From assembly GCA_029262295.1 (NCBI GenBank), contig JAJCZR010000011.1, forward strand, positions 802 to 64,801: 64,000 nt of DNA, given 5' to 3'. Position 1 is the stretch's first letter; the number at the start of each line of letters is the position of its first letter. The notes under the pieces are model-generated. The model worked only from the letters and a program-made list of their open reading frames with translations, did not search any database and was not told where the DNA came from. Below are positions 54 through 8,508 of the stretch, piece after piece. This DNA is from Deltaproteobacteria bacterium. Lineage in GTDB: Bacteria > Desulfobacterota_D > UBA1144 > Nemesobacterales > Nemesobacteraceae. The translations under genes and the position numbers were made by a program.

Positions 54-392
54 CTATTGGTCTTCATCAAAAAAGCCTTCCAGGTCTTCAAATAAGTTTG
101 TGGAAAATTCAACCCATTCTTCCCACTCGGCCATATAGTCTTTTGACTCATCAACCTTTTTCCTGACAATTATTCCTCTGTTTGTATTTTCAACAAGAAA
201 AAAGCCAAGATTCTGTAACTTGCTTTCTAAAATAGTTGAATATCTATGAAGAATATCAACCACTTTTTTTTCTGAATCCCTTATCTCGGCAAGAAAGTAC
301 CCATTGGTTTTAGATGAAGGCATATCCATTGTCATATGTTTAAACATTGTTGGGTTTATATCCTCCGCCTTCATTGAAATAAAAAGTTCCAT
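54..392 (-). CDS. Hypothetical protein, 112 aa
   Basis: ATG start and natural amino-acid composition; divergent from the SDR gene; no family recognised. Confidence 0.6.
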   Translation of the reverse strand: MELFISMKAEDINPTMFKHMTMDMPSSKTNGYFLAEIRDSEKKVVDILHRYSTILESKLQNLGFFLVENTNRGIIVRKKVDESKDYMAEWEEWVEFSTNLFEDLEGFFDEDQ

Positions 393-508: not shown

Positions 509-1222
509 ATGACTAGTTTAGAGGGGAAAACAGCAATTATTACGGGCGGGACTGGTGGGCTCGGAAAAGATGTTGTAAAACTGTTTCTGGAAAAAAATTG
601 CAACGTAATTTCTACTTACATAATAGATGATGAAATAGATAAATTTGTTTATCTAAGAGAACAGTATAAATCAAAGGTAATATTTGCCAAAGCTGATGTA
701 ACTAATGAAAATCAGATAAATAAGCTCGTATCAAAAGCTAAAGAGATTTACGGGAAGATCGATATATTAATAAACCTGGTTGGCGGATTCACAAAGGCGA
801 ACATTTATAAAACAGATATTGAAAGCTTTGATGAAATGATCAATATAAACCTTAAAAGCTGTTTTGTTTGTACAAAACAGATACTGCCCCATTTCATTGA
901 AAATAATAGTGGAAAAATAGTAAATATTGCAGCAAAACCAGCTGTAAAGAGCTATTCAGGAGTTGGGGCTTATGGTGCATCAAAAGCAGGTGTTGTTGCC
1001 CTCACAGAAACAGTTGCTGATGAAGTAAAGGATTATGATATAAATGTAAATGCAATCATTCCTGGCACAATTGACACAGCTCAAAACAGGATTGATATGA
1101 AGGATGCTGATTTTACCAAATGGGTAAAACCGGAAGAACTTGCTAAAGTTATTCTATTTCTTGTGACCGAAGATTCGAAGTCGATTAGTGGTGCTGTGAT
1201 TCCTGCCCTTGGGAAATCTTAG
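509..1222 (+). CDS. Short-chain dehydrogenase/reductase (SDR)
   Basis: TGGTGGLG Rossmann motif, catalytic YGASK (YxxxK), NAIIPG motif; GGAG SD upstream. Confidence 0.92.
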   Translation: MTSLEGKTAIITGGTGGLGKDVVKLFLEKNCNVISTYIIDDEIDKFVYLREQYKSKVIFAKADVTNENQINKLVSKAKEIYGKIDILINLVGGFTKANIYKTDIESFDEMININLKSCFVCTKQILPHFIENNSGKIVNIAAKPAVKSYSGVGAYGASKAGVVALTETVADEVKDYDINVNAIIPGTIDTAQNRIDMKDADFTKWVKPEELAKVILFLVTEDSKSISGAVIPALGKS

Positions 1223-1226
1223 AATC

Positions 1227-2753
1227 CTATAAGCTCTCTTTTAAAGAATTAAGCTCAATATCATCTTTATCTTCAAAGACTTTATCAAGAACATATTTTC
1301 CAAATTCAGAAGCAACTTTAATATCATTTTTTCTAATTTGCACATTATTCAGATACTGCATCCGCAGCACATCACCATTTCTTAATTCAGGGATAATTCC
1401 ACCAATAAAAAACCCAGATTCTCTAAGTTTGGAAATAATCTGAGATGCATGTTGGTCAAATATAGGAAGATCAACGTATATACAATCCATTCTGAGTGTG
1501 CACATTTGTCTTAAAACAAAGTTTATTTCTACTAAAGTATCCCTTCCATATTCCTCTATAATTACAAAAACCTGACCATAATCTTTTCTCATTACTATTT
1601 CACTTTTTCCAAGATTATTTTCGGATTCACTTATAGGCAGATTACTTGTCTCAATATCCCGTTTAAATTCAAGTTGTTCGTATATTCTTGAAGCAACTTC
1701 ATGATATATTAAAGGAAGGAAAACACTTTTTTTCTTGTTGTAAAGTACAGTGGTGTACATTAAAGCTATTGATTGCCTTCTTGAATCAGCTTTAACTTCA
1801 ATATCTTTTACTGTAATTTCTCCCGGTGTATATCCAAAGAGAAAACCTACTTCTTTTGCCCCAAATTTGGCAACACCCTTTTGCGTGAAAGGATGAATTG
1901 TTACTGCTTCTCCATAAATACCAATAATCTTATTTTCACGGGCATAGTTTTGAAGAAACTCCCTCATCTTCTTGAAAACGCCCTGGCCACGGTAACGTGT
2001 ATCAACAATAGCAATACCACTTTCGCAAACCCTGGACTGTTGTGTTTCAAAGGTTAATCCGAGATGTCCAATAATTTCACCATTGGTTGTAGATGTAACA
2101 CAAGAAATCAAAAGCCCTGATTTAATCCTTGCCTCTATACGCTCTGGATAATACATAAATTCACTTGGGTAACTGTGCCCATAGCTTCTGTAAACAACCT
2201 TCACAAGCTCTTTTATGTCATCAAATTCCAATAACCTTACATCTAATCTCTCATTTGTATCAATTACTTCACTTTCAGGGGATTTATTCTCATCAGATAT
2301 CTCAGAACTATTTCGAATATCACTTGCCGGTAGAAATTTTCTTATTTCTATTCTGTTTCCATCAGGTCCAAGATTTTTGTAGTAAACCCTGTCTGCGTAT
2401 CCAAGTGCCATATATGTTTGAAACCTTTTGTCATTACCCTCTTCAATGCTATCAAATTGAAACGGAATCCCTTTGTCTTCCACAGCAATTACAAGCGAGT
2501 TAAACCTTCTTGCAGCAATTACATTTATATTCTGATCGTTACATCCTTCGTAACAGTCGTTAACTACTGTCTCTAAAATTTCATTTAAAACTTTTTCTAG
2601 CTTATGAGAATCATCACTTGAAACTCCAAGCGAGTTTGCAATATGTGAAACCATATTTATGGCAGTATCATAAAGACAAGGGTCAGACAGGATTGTAAGT
2701 TTAGCAATTACTACATCCTTTGCACTTGAATGAGAAATAGTCTGTGTAGACAT
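1227..2753 (-). CDS. RsbW-like GHKL (HATPase) domain fused to GNAT N-acetyltransferase domain(s)
   Basis: N-terminal ~140 aa have the anti-sigma-factor kinase layout (LNEILETVVND ... IAVEDKGIPF ... GNRIEIRK). Central GNAT acetyl-CoA motif A (VDTRYRGQGVF). Confidence 0.7.
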   Translation of the reverse strand: MSTQTISHSSAKDVVIAKLTILSDPCLYDTAINMVSHIANSLGVSSDDSHKLEKVLNEILETVVNDCYEGCNDQNINVIAARRFNSLVIAVEDKGIPFQFDSIEEGNDKRFQTYMALGYADRVYYKNLGPDGNRIEIRKFLPASDIRNSSEISDENKSPESEVIDTNERLDVRLLEFDDIKELVKVVYRSYGHSYPSEFMYYPERIEARIKSGLLISCVTSTTNGEIIGHLGLTFETQQSRVCESGIAIVDTRYRGQGVFKKMREFLQNYARENKIIGIYGEAVTIHPFTQKGVAKFGAKEVGFLFGYTPGEITVKDIEVKADSRRQSIALMYTTVLYNKKKSVFLPLIYHEVASRIYEQLEFKRDIETSNLPISESENNLGKSEIVMRKDYGQVFVIIEEYGRDTLVEINFVLRQMCTLRMDCIYVDLPIFDQHASQIISKLRESGFFIGGIIPELRNGDVLRMQYLNNVQIRKNDIKVASEFGKYVLDKVFEDKDDIELNSLKESL

Positions 2754-2771
2754 AGTAATAATAAATATATA

Positions 2772-4184
2772 TTACTTTTTCGGCTTATAGTAGCTTGTGC
2801 TACTTCCATATATTCCTTCAGCAGCTTCCATAAATGTTTCCGTAAGAGTGGGATGAGGATGAATTGATAGTGCAATATCTTTAGCAGTGGCCGCCATTTC
2901 AACAGCTAATACAGCCTCTGATATGAGCTCTCCAGCTCCGGGGCCGACAATTCCTACTCCTAAAACCCTTTTAGACTTTGAATCAACAATAAGTTTTGTA
3001 AGGCCATCGGTTCTATTTAAAGTCATAGCCCTTCCAGATGCAGCCCATGGGAATTTTGAGATTTCTATATCAATATCTTTTTCTTTCGCTTCAAGTTCTG
3101 TAAGACCACACCATGCGATCTCAGGATCAGTAAACATTACTGCCGGAATGGCCGCAGGTTCATAAGCTGATTTTTCTCCAGCTATTACTTCTGCCACAAC
3201 AATTCCTTCATGTGTGGCCTTATGTGCAAGCATTGGATCGCCTGCAACATCTCCTATTGCATATATGTTTTTTTCAGAAGTTCTTCTAAATTCATCAACA
3301 ACTATAAAACCTCTGTCATTCACTTTCACATTTGTATTTTCAATCTTAATTGTATCAGTAACAGGTTTTCTTCCAATTGAGACTAAAACCTTATCAAACT
3401 CTTTTTCTATAGCCCCATCTTTGCCTTCAAGTGATACTTTAACTTTATCACCCAAGTCTTCTACAGAATTGACTTTCGTTTCAAGCAAGATTTCTTTAAA
3501 CTCTTTTTTGAGCTTTTTGTGTAGTACATTCACAAGATCTTTATCTGCACCCTGAACAAGATTTGGGAGCATCTCAACCACTGTTATATCTGTTCCCAAT
3601 GCAGAATAAACAGTACCAAGTTCAAGGCCTATATAACCTCCGCCAATAATAAGCATATTTTTTGGAATTTCACCGAGGCTAAGTGCAGTTTTTGAACTGA
3701 GAACATTTTTGGAGAACTCTACATTTGGGATAGCGCTTGGAACTGAACCTGTGGCAATTACAGCATTTTCAAACTCAAGTTCAATTTCCTCATCATCCGC
3801 AGTTTTAACTATTAAAGCATTACTTGAGTTAAAAGTTGCATAACCTTGAATATACTCAATTTTTCTTGATTTAGTTAAAGTTTTAAGCCCGCCTGTAAGT
3901 TTAGTCACAACATCTTCTTTCCAGGAAAAAAGCTTTTCGACATCTATCTTCGGTTTTTTGTATTCAATTCCAAATGCTTTTGCATCTTCTGCCTCATGAA
4001 TAACTTTTGCAGCATGAAGAAGAGCTTTTGAGGGAATACATCCCCTATAAAGACAAACTCCGCCAGGATTAACCTCAGGATCAATCAAAACAACTTTTTT
4101 CCCTTTATCCGCAGCGTGAAAAGCTGCGGGATAACCTCCTGGCCCTGCTCCTATTACAGCAACTTCTGTAGACATCTTTTTCAT
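2772..4184 (-). CDS. lpdA: Dihydrolipoyl dehydrogenase (E3) of the PDH operon
   Basis: GAGPGG FAD motif, GGVCLYRGCIPSK redox disulfide, C-terminal HPHPTLTE. Confidence 0.97.
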   Translation of the reverse strand: MKKMSTEVAVIGAGPGGYPAAFHAADKGKKVVLIDPEVNPGGVCLYRGCIPSKALLHAAKVIHEAEDAKAFGIEYKKPKIDVEKLFSWKEDVVTKLTGGLKTLTKSRKIEYIQGYATFNSSNALIVKTADDEEIELEFENAVIATGSVPSAIPNVEFSKNVLSSKTALSLGEIPKNMLIIGGGYIGLELGTVYSALGTDITVVEMLPNLVQGADKDLVNVLHKKLKKEFKEILLETKVNSVEDLGDKVKVSLEGKDGAIEKEFDKVLVSIGRKPVTDTIKIENTNVKVNDRGFIVVDEFRRTSEKNIYAIGDVAGDPMLAHKATHEGIVVAEVIAGEKSAYEPAAIPAVMFTDPEIAWCGLTELEAKEKDIDIEISKFPWAASGRAMTLNRTDGLTKLIVDSKSKRVLGVGIVGPGAGELISEAVLAVEMAATAKDIALSIHPHPTLTETFMEAAEGIYGSSTSYYKPKK

Positions 4185-4187
4185 GTA

Positions 4188-5702
4188 TTATCCTTCTAAC
4201 ATAATATTGAATGGCTGTTCCATAGCTTCACAAAACCATCTTGCAAACCTCGCAGCTTCTGCCCCATCTATTATTCTGTGATCGTAGGATAGACAGATTG
4301 GCATCATAAGTCTTGGTTTAAAATCTTTGCCATCATATACAGGTTCAAATGATGATCGGGTAACGCCAAGTATTGCAACATCGGGCTGATTAATAATTGG
4401 TGTAAAATAAGTTCCGCCAATTCCTCCAACATTTGTTACTGAGAATGTACTTCCCTGAAGCTCATCCGCTTTAACTTTTTTATTTCTTGCCCTTTCAGAG
4501 AGATCGCCAAGTTCTATGGATATTTCAGTAATATTTTTTTCGTCAACATTCTTTATAACTGGCACTAAAAGCCCTCTTTCCGTGTCCACGGCCACACCAA
4601 TATTTATATAATTTTTATAAATTACTTTTTTGTTCTGCATATCAATACTGCTGTTAAATTTAGGAAATTTTTCAAGCGCAGATGCTACAATTTTAATAAT
4701 TATCGCAGTCATGGTAAGGTTGCCACCGGAGTTTTTAACCTTTTCCTTGTTCTGCTTTCTTATCTTCTCAAGCTCTGTAATATCTGCTTTATCACACTGT
4801 GTAACATGAGGGGCAATCCATGCCTTTGAAAGGTGTTTAGCTGTAAGCTTTCTTATATTAGACATATCCTCAGTAGTTACATCACCCCACTTTGAGAAAT
4901 CTGGAAGATCGCCATAATTCACAGTCGCACCTGGTGAACTTCCGCTTAGTATGGCTTTTGCATGGCTTTTTACATCTTCTTCAAGTATTCTGCCGCTAGG
5001 TCCTGAGCCAGAGACAGAATTTATATCCACACCTATTTCCCTCGCAAGGCGCCTTACAGATGGAGGAGCTGGCACAGGAACTAAATCATCATCTTCTTCA
5101 TCAATATTACTCTCATTACTATCTTCTTTTTTAGATGCTTCTGAAGGTGCATCTGCCTTTTCATCTTTATCTTTTGATTCTTTCTTTTGATTTTTTGATT
5201 TTTTTTCTTCCTTGTTTTCTTCTACAGAATCATCAGGTTTTTCTTTTTTATCTTTTTTCTCATCAACTTCATCAGAATTGTTATCTTTATCCTCTTTATC
5301 ATCAGCTTTATCAGAACTTTTATCTTTAGCCTCTTTTTTATCTTCTGAGTCATCTTCTTTTTTTGTCGTTGAATCTTTGCTTTCTTCTTTTGATTCTTCG
5401 GGCTCAGACTCTTTTTCTTTACTTTTATCTTTTTCTTGCGAACTTTCATCATCTCCACTATCAGATGATCCATCATCTATTTTCACAAGCACCTGACCAA
5501 TTTTGACTGTGTCTCCATTACTAACAAGCACTTCACTGATCTCACCATCAGCGGGAGAAGGAATCTCAAGTGCAGCCTTGTCTGTTTCCAGTTCCAGCAA
5601 TGATTGTTCTTTCTTCACTTTGTCGCCGGGCGATACAAAAACATTAACTACACTTCCTTCTTCAATATCCTCTCCAATTTCAGGCAATTTAAATTCAATC
5701 AT
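4188..5702 (-). CDS. aceF: Pyruvate dehydrogenase E2 acetyltransferase with a single lipoyl domain
   Basis: Lipoyl motif ETDKA, subunit-binding domain PSVRRLAREIGV...GSGPSGRI, catalytic DHRIIDG. Confidence 0.95.
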   Translation of the reverse strand: MIEFKLPEIGEDIEEGSVVNVFVSPGDKVKKEQSLLELETDKAALEIPSPADGEISEVLVSNGDTVKIGQVLVKIDDGSSDSGDDESSQEKDKSKEKESEPEESKEESKDSTTKKEDDSEDKKEAKDKSSDKADDKEDKDNNSDEVDEKKDKKEKPDDSVEENKEEKKSKNQKKESKDKDEKADAPSEASKKEDSNESNIDEEDDDLVPVPAPPSVRRLAREIGVDINSVSGSGPSGRILEEDVKSHAKAILSGSSPGATVNYGDLPDFSKWGDVTTEDMSNIRKLTAKHLSKAWIAPHVTQCDKADITELEKIRKQNKEKVKNSGGNLTMTAIIIKIVASALEKFPKFNSSIDMQNKKVIYKNYINIGVAVDTERGLLVPVIKNVDEKNITEISIELGDLSERARNKKVKADELQGSTFSVTNVGGIGGTYFTPIINQPDVAILGVTRSSFEPVYDGKDFKPRLMMPICLSYDHRIIDGAEAARFARWFCEAMEQPFNIMLEG

Positions 5703-5714
5703 TTTAATTCTCCA

Positions 5715-8399
5715 CTAAGTAAAAATAGGATTTGTTTTTTTAGGATTAATACCTAAATCTTTTACTGCTTTAGTTACAACTTTGTTATCAACAAGGTCTT
5801 CCTTATTAAGTTCATAAAGTGTAGTTAAGACAATATATCTGTAGTCAACTTCAAAAAAATCACGAAGGGCCTCACGAGTGTCACTTCTGCCAAAACCATC
5901 GGTACCAAGAGATACAAGCGGTCTGGGAAACCAGTTGGAAATTGAATCAGGAAGTGATTTAAGATAATCAGTAGAAGCTACAAAGACTCCATTTTCATTC
6001 TTGAGGCATTCTTGAATATAGCAATTTTTTTGCTTTTTATCGGGGTTCATACGATTCCACCTTTCAATATCATGGGCGTCCAGATAAAGCTCTTTATAAC
6101 TTGTAATACTCCACACATCAGAAGAAACTTTGTAGTCACCCTCAAGGACTTCCTGTGCCTTTAGTACTTCATTAATAAGCGCTCCACTTCCAAACAAATG
6201 CGCCTTTACTTTTGAGTCTTTCATTTCAGACTTCTTAAAACGGTACATACCTTTTATTATTCCTTCTTCCACACCCTCTGGTATTGGAGGTTGAAGATAC
6301 TGTTCATTCATCACAGTTATATAATAAAAAATATCTTCCTGGTCTTGATACATCCTTTTTATTCCATCTCGAAAAATAACGGCTATTTCATAGGCAAATG
6401 CCGGGTCGTAGGCTTTTAAATTTGGATATGCATAAGCAAAGTGGTGGCTATTTCCGTCTTGATGTTGAAGCCCCTCACCTGCCAATGTTGTCCTTCCAGC
6501 AGTGCCGCCAATCATAAAACCTTTACATCTCATATCAGCTGCTGCCCACACAAGATCACCAATTCTTTGAAGTCCAAACATAGAGTAATAAATAAAGAAC
6601 GGAATAGTATTTATACCATGCGTGGCATAAGCTGTGCCAGCAGCAATGAAAGACGACATTGATCCGGCTTCAGTTATACCCTCTTCAAGTATTTGACCAT
6701 CTACAATTTCCTTATAAAAAAGGAAAGTATCTGCATCTACGGGTTCATATAATTGGCCTACGTGAGAATATATACCCACTTGCCTGAAAAGTGATTCCAT
6801 CCCAAATGTCCTTGCCTCGTCGGGTACAATTGGAACAATGAGATCACCGATATTCTCATCACGAAGAAGTTTTGAAAGTAGTCTCACAATTGCCATTGTT
6901 GTAGCAGTTGTTCTGTCACCAGAACCTTTTAAAAATTCATCAAATAGCTCATAAGGGATATTTTCAAGTGGTTTAGCTGTAACTTTTCTTTCTGGAAGGT
7001 AACCCCCCAGTTTTTTTCTTTTTTCATGTAAATATTTCATCTCAGGAGTATCATCAGATGGTTTATAGAAAGGTGCTTTTACTACTTCTTCTTCTGATAT
7101 TGGGATATAAAACCTTGCCCTGAAATTTTTTAATTCCTGTTCGTTAAGTTTTTTTTGCTGATGTGTAATGTTTTTCCCTTCACCACTTTCACCAAGGCCA
7201 TAGCCTTTTATAGTTTTTGCAAGAATAACAGTTGGTGCACCTTTATGTTCTACCGCAGCTTTATAAGCAGCATAAACCTTTTCAGAATCATGGCCCCCTC
7301 TTCCGAGTTTCTCAAGCTGAATATCTGAATAATTTTTTACCAGTTCTTTAAGTTCAGGATGGGTACCAAAAAAGTGATTTCTTATATATTCTCCTTTAGA
7401 GACAACATACTTTTGATAATCACCATCAACAGCTTCTTCCATTCGCTCCACAAGAAATCCGTTTTCATCTTTAGCAAGAAGTGGGTCCCAGTCGGAACCC
7501 CAAACAAGTTTTATAACATTCCAGCCAGCTCCCTTAAAGTTTCTCTCAAGTTCCTGAATTATTTTTCCATTTCCCCTTACAGGACCGTCTAAACGTTGAA
7601 GGTTGCAGTTAATAACAAATATGAGATTATCGAGCTGTTCCCTTGATGCAAGGGAAATTGCCCCAAGGGATTCAGGCTCATCAGTTTCACCATCTCCAAG
7701 AAATGCCCAAACTTTACTATTAGATTCTTTTTTTAAACCCCTGTCTTCGAGATACCTGTTAAATCGGGCCTGATAAATCGCCATTATTGGCCCAAGCCCC
7801 ATTGAAACTGTTGGAAACTCCCAAAAATCAGGCATAAGCCAGGGATGAGGGTAAGAAGATAGTCCTTTATCTGTGTATATTTCCCTTCTAAAGTTCTCAA
7901 GCTGTTCTAAAGACAATTTTCCTTCAAGATAAGCCCTTGCATATATCCCTGGTGCTGCATGGCCTTGAAAGTAAATGATATCACCTTGCTGCTTCTCATT
8001 TTTAGCCTTAAAAAAGTGGTTAAAACCTATTTCATAGAGTGTTGCTGAAGAAGCATAAGATGAGATATGTCCACCAATACCGTCTTCAAGCTTATTAGCA
8101 TGCACCACCATAGCCATTGCATTCCATCTTATTATGCTTCTTATTGTCCGTTCAATTTCATAGTTGCCAGGATAAAGTGGCTGTGCATCTCTGTGGATAG
8201 TGTTTATATATGGAGTATTTGCGGTGTATGGAAGAGTTACACCTTTTTCGTGTGCATAAATCTGAAGTTTTTTAAGAAGATATTTTACCCTTTCAGGTCC
8301 TGATTCTTCTAAAACATATTCAAGTGATTCAATCCACTCCTGTTCTTCAATGTCTTCAGTTGATTCAATATTTCTTTCTTTAGCCATAGTATTTTCCAA
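5715..8399 (-). CDS. aceE: Pyruvate dehydrogenase E1, homodimeric AceE type
   Basis: 894 aa; IRWNAMAMV, GGHISS, TPP motif GDGETDEPES, GTDGFGRSDTR. Confidence 0.97.
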   Translation of the reverse strand: MENTMAKERNIESTEDIEEQEWIESLEYVLEESGPERVKYLLKKLQIYAHEKGVTLPYTANTPYINTIHRDAQPLYPGNYEIERTIRSIIRWNAMAMVVHANKLEDGIGGHISSYASSATLYEIGFNHFFKAKNEKQQGDIIYFQGHAAPGIYARAYLEGKLSLEQLENFRREIYTDKGLSSYPHPWLMPDFWEFPTVSMGLGPIMAIYQARFNRYLEDRGLKKESNSKVWAFLGDGETDEPESLGAISLASREQLDNLIFVINCNLQRLDGPVRGNGKIIQELERNFKGAGWNVIKLVWGSDWDPLLAKDENGFLVERMEEAVDGDYQKYVVSKGEYIRNHFFGTHPELKELVKNYSDIQLEKLGRGGHDSEKVYAAYKAAVEHKGAPTVILAKTIKGYGLGESGEGKNITHQQKKLNEQELKNFRARFYIPISEEEVVKAPFYKPSDDTPEMKYLHEKRKKLGGYLPERKVTAKPLENIPYELFDEFLKGSGDRTTATTMAIVRLLSKLLRDENIGDLIVPIVPDEARTFGMESLFRQVGIYSHVGQLYEPVDADTFLFYKEIVDGQILEEGITEAGSMSSFIAAGTAYATHGINTIPFFIYYSMFGLQRIGDLVWAAADMRCKGFMIGGTAGRTTLAGEGLQHQDGNSHHFAYAYPNLKAYDPAFAYEIAVIFRDGIKRMYQDQEDIFYYITVMNEQYLQPPIPEGVEEGIIKGMYRFKKSEMKDSKVKAHLFGSGALINEVLKAQEVLEGDYKVSSDVWSITSYKELYLDAHDIERWNRMNPDKKQKNCYIQECLKNENGVFVASTDYLKSLPDSISNWFPRPLVSLGTDGFGRSDTREALRDFFEVDYRYIVLTTLYELNKEDLVDNKVVTKAVKDLGINPKKTNPIFT

Positions 8400-8472: not shown

Positions 8473-8508
8473 TAGTATATTGACCATAGTGCAATTGTTA
8501 ATATACTA
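8473..8508. promoter_or_regulatory. 12-bp inverted repeat forming overlapping divergent sigma70-like promoters for aceE and lpd2
   Basis: TAGTATATTGAC-N12-GTTAATATACTA (11/12 match). Plus strand TTGACC-N16-TATACT (8480-8507); minus strand TTAACA-N16-TATACT (8501-8474). Confidence 0.6.

Follow-up and report, generated by a model that had tools for sequence, protein, structure and literature searches.

The gene considered here lies near one end of a 64,000-nt stretch of DNA (the window, within which all positions are counted) from contig JAJCZR010000011.1 of an assembly entitled Deltaproteobacteria bacterium. This gene, hereafter gene X, is a 508-aa open reading frame (ORF) at 1227..2753 on the reverse strand which, as judged from the ORF, from Pfam, from full-length homologues and from an AlphaFold2 (AF2) model, encodes an RsbW-like head followed by a GNAT domain and a degenerate GNAT-like domain. 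It terminates an E1p-type pyruvate dehydrogenase (PDH) operon, aceE-aceF-lpdA (2772..8399, reverse strand), in which aceE (5715-8399) is the first gene, the E2 gene aceF (4188-5702) stands in the middle and lpdA (2772-4184), the third, ends 18 nt 5′ of gene X on the same strand, so that the placement given by the initial annotation is borne out by the coordinates. The identity of the operon rests on its ORFs and on orthologous loci having the same gene order, whose products carry the Pfam domains PDH_E1_N, Transketolase and PDH_E1_M, then Biotin_lipoyl, E3_binding and 2-oxoacid_dh, and finally Pyr_redox_2; the lpdA product is above the cut-off of TIGR01350, the dihydrolipoyl dehydrogenase equivalog. 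On the other side a FabG-like short-chain dehydrogenase/reductase (SDR) gene (509..1222, forward strand) converges on gene X, the two stop codons being 4 nt apart. Within the Dadabacteria-type sample (27 loci, L030/L031 included) the SDR gene adjoins gene X in 18 of 24, two of which have no PDH genes upstream.

The spacer between lpdA and gene X (2754..2771, reverse strand; 18 nt, AT-rich, TATATATTTATTATTACT) contains no Shine-Dalgarno sequence, and this absence suggests that gene X is translated at a low level or by coupling; aceF, lpdA and the SDR gene are each preceded by such a sequence (GGAG or AGGA). No terminator-like site was found between lpdA and gene X, the sole promoter candidate near their junction scored 9/12 in a scan that yielded no more sites than shuffled sequence, and the base composition runs on without a break from the PDH genes through gene X. 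Since there is neither a terminator nor a promoter above chance and the composition is continuous, co-transcription of lpdA and gene X is the parsimonious inference and the most likely state of affairs. A recent horizontal acquisition of gene X was also considered and was rejected, there being no compositional break with respect to the PDH genes. The best promoter-like matches of the region are found upstream of aceE at 8474-8507, where two sites, each 10/12, stand back to back, one per strand, and probably represent the operon promoter.

Two other features of the locus may be recorded here. The aceF gene (window 5030-5470, residues about 78-225) encodes a low-complexity linker of about 150 aa, rich in Lys, Glu, Asp and Ser, that runs from the lipoyl domain to the subunit-binding domain, AceF with this linker measuring 504 aa versus 438-445 aa in some X-bearing relatives. 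Furthermore, throughout the clade (13 loci) the SDR gene and ileS are separated by a conserved 112-aa ORF (54-392, reverse strand), which lies directly 3′ of gene X, on the same strand, where the SDR gene is missing (L017, L020, L029); when it was checked as a hidden STAS partner, no Pfam match was obtained.

The protein encoded by gene X is built of an RsbW-like head, a linker, a GNAT domain and a pseudo-GNAT domain. The full-length AF2 model has a mean predicted local distance difference test score (pLDDT) of 85.7 and a predicted template modelling score (pTM) of 0.87, its sole disordered part (pLDDT below 50) being residues 98-108, which match the ATP lid. The head (residues 14-140; 2334..2714, reverse strand) is assigned the GHKL fold of RsbW and SpoIIAB. 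Single-sequence searches are only suggestive in this respect: HATPase_c_2 matches residues 28-138 with 21.3 bits, under the Pfam cut-off of 27.4, and the best, albeit weak, NCBIfam match is RsbW, nothing being significant. However, a head profile built from 35 family members (profile A5) matches in the PDB the structures of RsbW (6m36, E=6.6e-11) and of SpoIIAB (1til, 1l0o and 1th8, E about 1e-6), and most homologues of gene X carry a precomputed PF13581 match. Because of the matches of this profile, the head can be placed, on sequence grounds, firmly among the anti-sigma serine kinases, a branch of the GHKL proteins.

The head is followed by a catalytic-looking GNAT domain (residues 171-325; 1779..2243, reverse strand) recognized by Pfam, by Foldseek and by its invariant residues. 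Acetyltransf_1 matches residues 188-276 with 23.0 bits, over its cut-off of 20.7, so that both halves of the RsbW-GNAT fusion read by the initial annotation are upheld. In Foldseek the full-length model has nothing but GNATs among its top 50 PDB neighbours (E=1.5e-8, TMt reaching 0.84), with the protein acetyltransferases RimI and Ard1 among the best fold matches. The acetyl-CoA pyrophosphate loop, motif A (IVDTRYRGQG, residues 249-258; 1980..2009, reverse strand), contains R253-Y-R-G-Q-G258, which conforms to the R/Q-x-x-G-x-G/A signature of the GNAT superfamily, and its R-Y/F-R-G core is nearly universal in the family, in which Y191, G192, Y195, Y201, P203, R255, G278, E282, H287 and E301 of this domain are invariant. 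An attempt to assign the class of acceptor by homology failed, the GNAT profile reaching at best E about 1e-3 against solved GNATs.

The remainder of the protein (residues 326-508; 1230..1778, reverse strand) is the further alpha/beta domain mentioned by the initial annotation, and the existence of such a domain is supported by the model of the last 187 residues alone (AF2, pLDDT 89.3). Its top Foldseek neighbours are all GNATs, with weak scores (E about 1e-3, TM 0.33-0.45 over about 100 columns), and no match was obtained against the PDB by sequence; the structural model thus depicts it as a second, degenerate GNAT-like domain that lacks motif A and ends in a long terminal helix.

One of the main peculiarities of gene X is the state of its ATP-binding boxes, in which the motifs quoted by the initial annotation (EDKG, EILET with Thr in the Asn column, a missing G2 box and RYRGQG) are all found. 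In the N-box region (residues 57-68, NEILETVVNDCY; 2550..2585, reverse strand) the sequence N57-E-I-L-E-T62 has Thr62 in place of the Mg-ATP-binding Asn, which occupies this column in 285/360 homologues; since a relative 83% identical to gene X has Thr at the same position, Thr62 is not a sequencing error. The G1 box (EDKGIP, residues 92-97; 2463..2480, reverse strand) is kept as E92-D-K-G95-I-P97, G95 and P97 being invariant in the family and D93 conserved in at least 90% of its members. By contrast, the G2 box and ATP lid (residues 107-118, NDKRFQTYMALG; 2400..2435, reverse strand), which have low pLDDT, are degenerate, with "DKRFQTY" replacing the "SGLGxxLM" of canonical members and KRF standing where the glycines sit. 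Of the boxes by which a catalytic RsbW is defined, gene X therefore retains the DxG of G1 and has lost both the N-box Asn and the GxG(L) of G2.

The state of these boxes varies across the family. Among 135 representatives at 50% identity, both the Asn and the G2 glycines are kept in 52, neither in 51 and the Asn alone in 29. EExxxNVIEHAF and GLG persist in members from Chloroflexota, Cloacimonadota, Sumerlaeota and Desulfobacterota, the loss of G2 is common to the whole clade formed by the Dadabacteria-type and Nitrospirota proteins, and the heads of Actinomycetota display a degeneration of another kind. In a comparison of gene X with the 83%-identical relative, the head has a ratio of nonsynonymous to synonymous substitution rates (dN/dS) of 0.09, the GNAT one of 0.08 and the C-terminal domain one of 0.05, values that are approximate since dS is close to saturation in this pair; they indicate that the head is under purifying selection and is not decaying. 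Because the fold is kept under purifying selection although the N-box Asn and the glycines of G2 have gone, the head is probably a pseudokinase, as the initial annotation had proposed.

An exhaustive HMMER search for homologues, counted as clusters at 50% identity, returned 1865 clusters, 1240 of them with E≤1e-10 and 447 with E≤1e-30; since 1240 clusters reach E≤1e-10, the architecture of gene X is far beyond chance. The members are almost all 480-520 aa long and align end to end, and their source annotations read "anti-sigma regulatory factor / GNAT" or "ATP-binding protein". Gene X thus belongs to a large, multi-phylum, uncharacterised family, which we name here RsbW-head / tandem-GNAT. The view that the module is undescribed holds within the full-text literature searched, in which no paper describing the fusion was found; the regulatory domains named in a 2021 review on the lysine acetyltransferases of bacteria are cAMP-binding, ACT and NADP-Rossmann domains, with none of GHKL, HATPase or anti-sigma type (PMC8556138). 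In some genomes two paralogues of the family lie side by side, divergently in L101 (6276-9503), where a CoA_transf_3 gene and a TetR gene are close by, and in tandem in L083 and L067.

How far does the linkage with PDH extend? In a sample of 80 genome loci of the family, aceE-aceF-lpd precede gene X only in the Dadabacteria-type group. Of the 26 loci of this group whose upstream sequence is long enough, 23 (L017 and L061 counted) have PDH genes upstream, with lpd-X gaps of 13-146 nt and, in L017, with gene X directly after aceF. Across these loci the X proteins have diverged to 40-58% identity. In a maximum-likelihood tree the PDH-linked loci form one clade (23 rows, support 100/99), whose sister group consists of L012 and L015, two Dadabacteria loci that keep the X-SDR pair with no PDH nearby, and of Nitrospirota copies that have neither; because the linked loci form a single clade, the tree indicates that the association of PDH and X arose once. 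The linkage is not seen in the distant homologues of Nitrospirota, Actinomycetota, Chloroflexota, Cloacimonadota and Desulfobacterota. Of the connection with PDH claimed by the initial annotation, what stands is therefore a conserved operonic association within one clade, and what does not is its extension to the family. Among 120 genomes of the phylum of the window AceE is present in 90 and X in 34, and the sister genus of the window's own family (about 35 genomes, AceE 75% identical) has no X. The titles of several metagenome-assembled genomes disagree with their content: L025, L027, L031, L010, L017 and L020 are Dadabacteria-type by X, by AceE and by synteny, yet are titled Spirochaetia, Chloroflexia or "Deltaproteobacteria", and these taxonomic labels look unreliable.

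Outside the PDH-linked clade gene X is found in other company. In the 80 genome loci, annotated with Pfam, the immediate same-strand neighbours that recur are an AMP-binding acyl-CoA ligase (6), an acetyl-CoA hydrolase/transferase (6), STAS (6) and SpoIIE PP2C (4) proteins, to which are added, once each, a LuxC acyl-CoA reductase and an enoyl-CoA hydratase. In Actinomycetota a butyryl-CoA:acetate-CoA-transferase-like gene precedes X by 54-72 nt, and in Cloacimonadota X is followed by a long-chain acyl-CoA ligase-like gene, the AMP-binding ligase adjoining X in 6 loci. In L096 (2-331) the 3′ end of a gene for a PEP-utilising enzyme of the PEP synthase / PPDK (pyruvate phosphate dikinase) type lies upstream of the distant member P0160, another neighbour belonging to the pyruvate node, seen once. 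A different type of context is that of Dehalococcoidales, where the order is STAS, X, 5TM-PP2C, RsbW (143 aa, full motifs), HAMP-PP2C and CoA-transferase, and that of the Syntrophorhabdaceae-type contigs, in which STAS (110 aa), RsbW (143 aa) and X follow one another, with X in the slot of sigB/sigF. A second sample, made of 80 metagenome loci and 5 further contigs (85 in all), adds the arrangements RsbW-X-STAS and X-STAS...PP2C, and shows STAS within 4 kb of X in 17/85 loci. Other neighbours of X are HAMP/PAS/GAF sensors and a methyl-accepting chemotaxis protein (MCP). Neither M20 deacylases nor HDAC-family (histone deacetylase) enzymes figure in the 25 top-ranking neighbour families. No sigma gene adjoins X at the window locus or in the 80 genome loci with conserved neighbours annotated.

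Two signals emerge at the level of the family. One is the presence of X in partner-switching cassettes devoid of a sigma factor, which come from several phyla and show at least four different orders of genes; the other is its proximity to enzymes that form or use acyl-CoA. The sigma-less placement among STAS, RsbW and PP2C genes, which was absent from the initial annotation, constitutes the strongest functional clue. The organism of the window does not share this context: in its genome (completeness 98.8%) no SpoIIE/PP2C protein was found, there is no stand-alone RsbW (no HATPase_c_2 match above the cut-off), and STAS is represented only by a STAS-MlaE fusion and by a weak 93-aa ORF. The latter (L091 1447-1728, contig C30; STAS match of 21 bits, sub-cut-off), whose gene adjoins that of an anti-sigma-like membrane protein, is the sole stand-alone STAS candidate of the genome. 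A cognate STAS protein and a PP2C phosphatase accompany relatives in Chloroflexota, Syntrophorhabdaceae and other groups and are missing here; as the genome has neither PP2C nor RsbW and lacks a clear STAS protein, partner switching at work in this organism was rejected. The same genome encodes two sirtuins and one enzyme of the histone deacetylase (HDAC) type.

If the head of gene X has lost the determinants of ATP binding and its organism has no partner-switching system, what could be the function of the protein? The explanation we prefer, for which confidence and doubt are about evenly balanced, is that gene X encodes a formerly switch-gated, acetyl-CoA-dependent acyltransferase co-expressed with PDH, whose head is a pseudokinase used for docking. 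More generally, the RsbW-head / tandem-GNAT proteins would be acyl-CoA-dependent acyltransferases having one intact GNAT with a degenerate GNAT-like domain behind it, their activity being gated via the N-terminal anti-sigma-kinase-like domain. Since the canonical heads keep their ATP boxes and their genes lie among STAS, RsbW and PP2C genes, these heads would most probably bind, and perhaps phosphorylate, a STAS antagonist as RsbW and SpoIIAB do; the switch would then have the fused acyltransferase for its output in place of a sigma factor, and a STAS protein under the control of a PP2C and a kinase would gate acyl transfer. In the clade of the window, in which the G2 glycines are lost and gene X has also lost the N-box Asn, the head would have become a kinase-dead docking or regulatory module, a role suggested by the loss of the ATP determinants in spite of purifying selection. 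Gene X would have been fixed once 3′ of aceE-aceF-lpdA and be co-transcribed with these genes, the lack of a Shine-Dalgarno sequence probably keeping its translation low; because it sits at the end of the operon and the donor is the product of PDH, both its expression and the supply of acetyl groups would follow PDH. The protein would then acetylate some acceptor. Between a protein acting in central acyl-CoA metabolism, which might be a component of PDH, and a small molecule, the former is slightly favoured, in view of the acyl-CoA-forming enzymes, among them the classical substrate class of Pat, that adjoin X in three other lineages, of the RimI and Ard1 fold matches and of the sirtuins and HDAC-type enzyme of the genome.

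Several observations weigh against this explanation. Many members of the family have no informative neighbour. X is missing from 59 of the phylum's 90 genomes with AceE, and in the genome G009 (L104, G009:C1, 4526-6651), that of a relative belonging to the same taxonomic order, the convergent SDR gene comes 39 nt after lpd and X does not intervene. The junction of G009 represents a clean presence/absence polymorphism of X. X is clearly an accessory gene that PDH does not need, and the linkage, being a single evolutionary event, could have persisted by operon inertia. Finally, the best match of the GNAT profile in the PDB (E=9e-4) is to GNA1- or AAC(6′)-like enzymes, and in the Syntrophorhabdaceae-like branch the commonest same-strand upstream neighbour of X is an MFS transporter (6/46; L097, L123, L124, L126, L130, L132), which suggests that in this branch the acceptor may be a small molecule.

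The last two points lead to the alternative that survives best, albeit an unlikely one, according to which gene X would be an N-acetyltransferase of a small molecule (an amine, an amino acid, a polyamine or a xenobiotic) that uses PDH-derived acetyl-CoA, the head merely serving for regulation or oligomerization. The prominence of SpeG among the fold matches of both GNAT-like domains speaks in the same sense as the GNA1-type and AAC(6′) matches and the MFS genes, but all these similarities are weak and generic to GNATs, with RimI and Ard1 scoring equally well, and the AMP-binding ligase that neighbours X in Cloacimonadota is a classical target of protein acetylation.

Quite unlikely, in our opinion, is that X is a dedicated regulator of PDH, whose head would dock on the complex (on the lipoyl/subunit-binding domain of E2, or on E1 or E3) and whose GNAT would acetylate a PDH subunit as a feedback at high acetyl-CoA, thereby providing bacteria with a functional counterpart of covalent PDH control. 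The retention of the operon position in nearly all loci of the clade, with short gaps and despite the divergence of the X proteins, the location directly after aceF in L017 and the proximity of relatives from other phyla to acyl-CoA-forming enzymes, which would be expected if X regulated its neighbour, are consistent with this possibility; the persistence of the X-SDR pair away from PDH in L012 and L015, the PDH-bearing genomes of the phylum devoid of X and the single origin of the linkage argue in the opposite direction. These latter facts, namely the single origin and the patchy presence of X (34/120 genomes), together with the X-less lpd/SDR junction of G009 and the lack of a Shine-Dalgarno sequence, would instead fit a gene having no functional tie to PDH, parked where a single ancestral insertion placed it, between lpd and the SDR gene, and either acting elsewhere or being lost; the fact that all domains are under strong purifying selection (dN/dS 0.05-0.09, with the reservation made above) and the maintenance of a tightly spaced linkage over deep divergence make this a quite improbable alternative. 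That X is an active Ser/Thr kinase phosphorylating PDH like a eukaryotic PDH kinase (PDK), or a true anti-sigma factor sequestering a sigma factor and having its GNAT as an acetyl-CoA sensor, is highly improbable since, in spite of the RsbW/SpoIIAB type of GHKL fold and of the N, G1 and G2 boxes kept by canonical members, gene X has undergone the Asn → Thr replacement and the loss of the G2 glycines, has no PDK-type N-terminal domain, and has no adjoining sigma gene, either at the window locus or in the annotated genome loci.

A more daring version of the preferred explanation, which we consider decidedly improbable as it stands, would make the RsbW-head / tandem-GNAT proteins outputs of partner switching of a new class, where STAS would gate acetylation instead of transcription, the head of the Dadabacteria-type proteins being a kinase-dead docking domain targeting the PDH complex; in that case gene X would serve specifically to regulate a bacterial PDH covalently, by acetylation. 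To remain with the former explanation, gene X would be a kinase-dead variant, captured by a PDH operon, of a large uncharacterised family, its function being suggested by context.

Acetylation of proteins and metabolites is widespread in bacteria, and few dedicated, signal-regulated acetyltransferases are known. A family combining an anti-sigma-type kinase domain and an acetyltransferase within sigma-less cassettes would, if real, link the Ser/Thr-phosphorylation switches to acetylation, and the copy studied here would exemplify a module that has lost its switch and has been captured by an operon of central metabolism. Bacterial PDH is generally held to be under allosteric and transcriptional control; an operon-encoded covalent regulator based on acetylation would thus be new, if true, what has been established so far being a genomic association.

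How does gene X compare with known systems? The parallel with the eukaryotic PDH kinases drawn by the initial annotation had to be abandoned. Gene X shares with PDK1-4 and BCKDK membership of the GHKL superfamily and a tie, be it genomic or functional, to a 2-oxoacid dehydrogenase complex, but its head belongs to a different branch, that of RsbW and SpoIIAB, its ATP boxes are degenerate, a GNAT module is present instead, and the N-terminal helical domain of the BCDHK_Adom3 type is missing (no Pfam match at E≤1).

With the type III acetyltransferases (the cAMP-GNAT enzymes MtPat/MsPat, the ACT-GNAT AAPatA and the NADP-GNAT MxKat; PMC8556138) gene X has in common the succession of an N-terminal regulatory domain and a GNAT, and its relatives the linkage to acyl-CoA-forming enzymes (AMP-binding ligase, CoA-transferase, PDH). 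The differences concern the regulatory domain, which is of the GHKL/anti-sigma kind, unlisted in that review (PMC8556138), the additional degenerate GNAT-like domain and the substrate, a protein substrate of X being putative; furthermore, its GNAT profile matches no solved structure of a Pat-type enzyme at E≤0.1. Thus, with a GHKL head in the place of the NDP-forming acyl-CoA synthetase-like, cAMP, ACT or NADP Rossmann domain that characterizes Pat, and with no detectable homology of the GNAT, gene X is not, by sequence comparison, a member of the Pat family (types I-V). The tandem-GNAT enzymes of type V (Eis, MshD) likewise consist of one GNAT with motif A and of a second GNAT-like domain lacking the cofactor loop; however, the second domain of X is a partial structural match (TM 0.33-0.45) with no sequence similarity, and the N-terminal GHKL head is an addition found in X.

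The closest relationship of the head is with RsbW and SpoIIAB of the RsbV-RsbW-SigB and SpoIIAA-SpoIIAB-SigF systems, to which it is homologous: canonical members of the family keep EExxxN, DxG and GLG, lie beside STAS and PP2C genes and, in one lineage, occupy exactly the slot of the sigma factor. Unlike these proteins, which bind a separate sigma factor, the family has its head fused to an acyltransferase, and the copy of the window has neither the N-box Asn nor the glycines of G2, in a genome that lacks RsbW, PP2C and any clear STAS protein. Sigma-less partner switches with enzymatic outputs exist in SiaABCD of Pseudomonas aeruginosa and in HsbR-HsbA-HsbD, where the STAS-like protein binds a diguanylate cyclase that serves as output and is a protein apart. 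Like the canonical X cassettes, these systems employ a STAS-like protein, a kinase and a PP2C to control an enzyme rather than transcription, but the output enzyme of the X family carries its own RsbW-like domain in cis.

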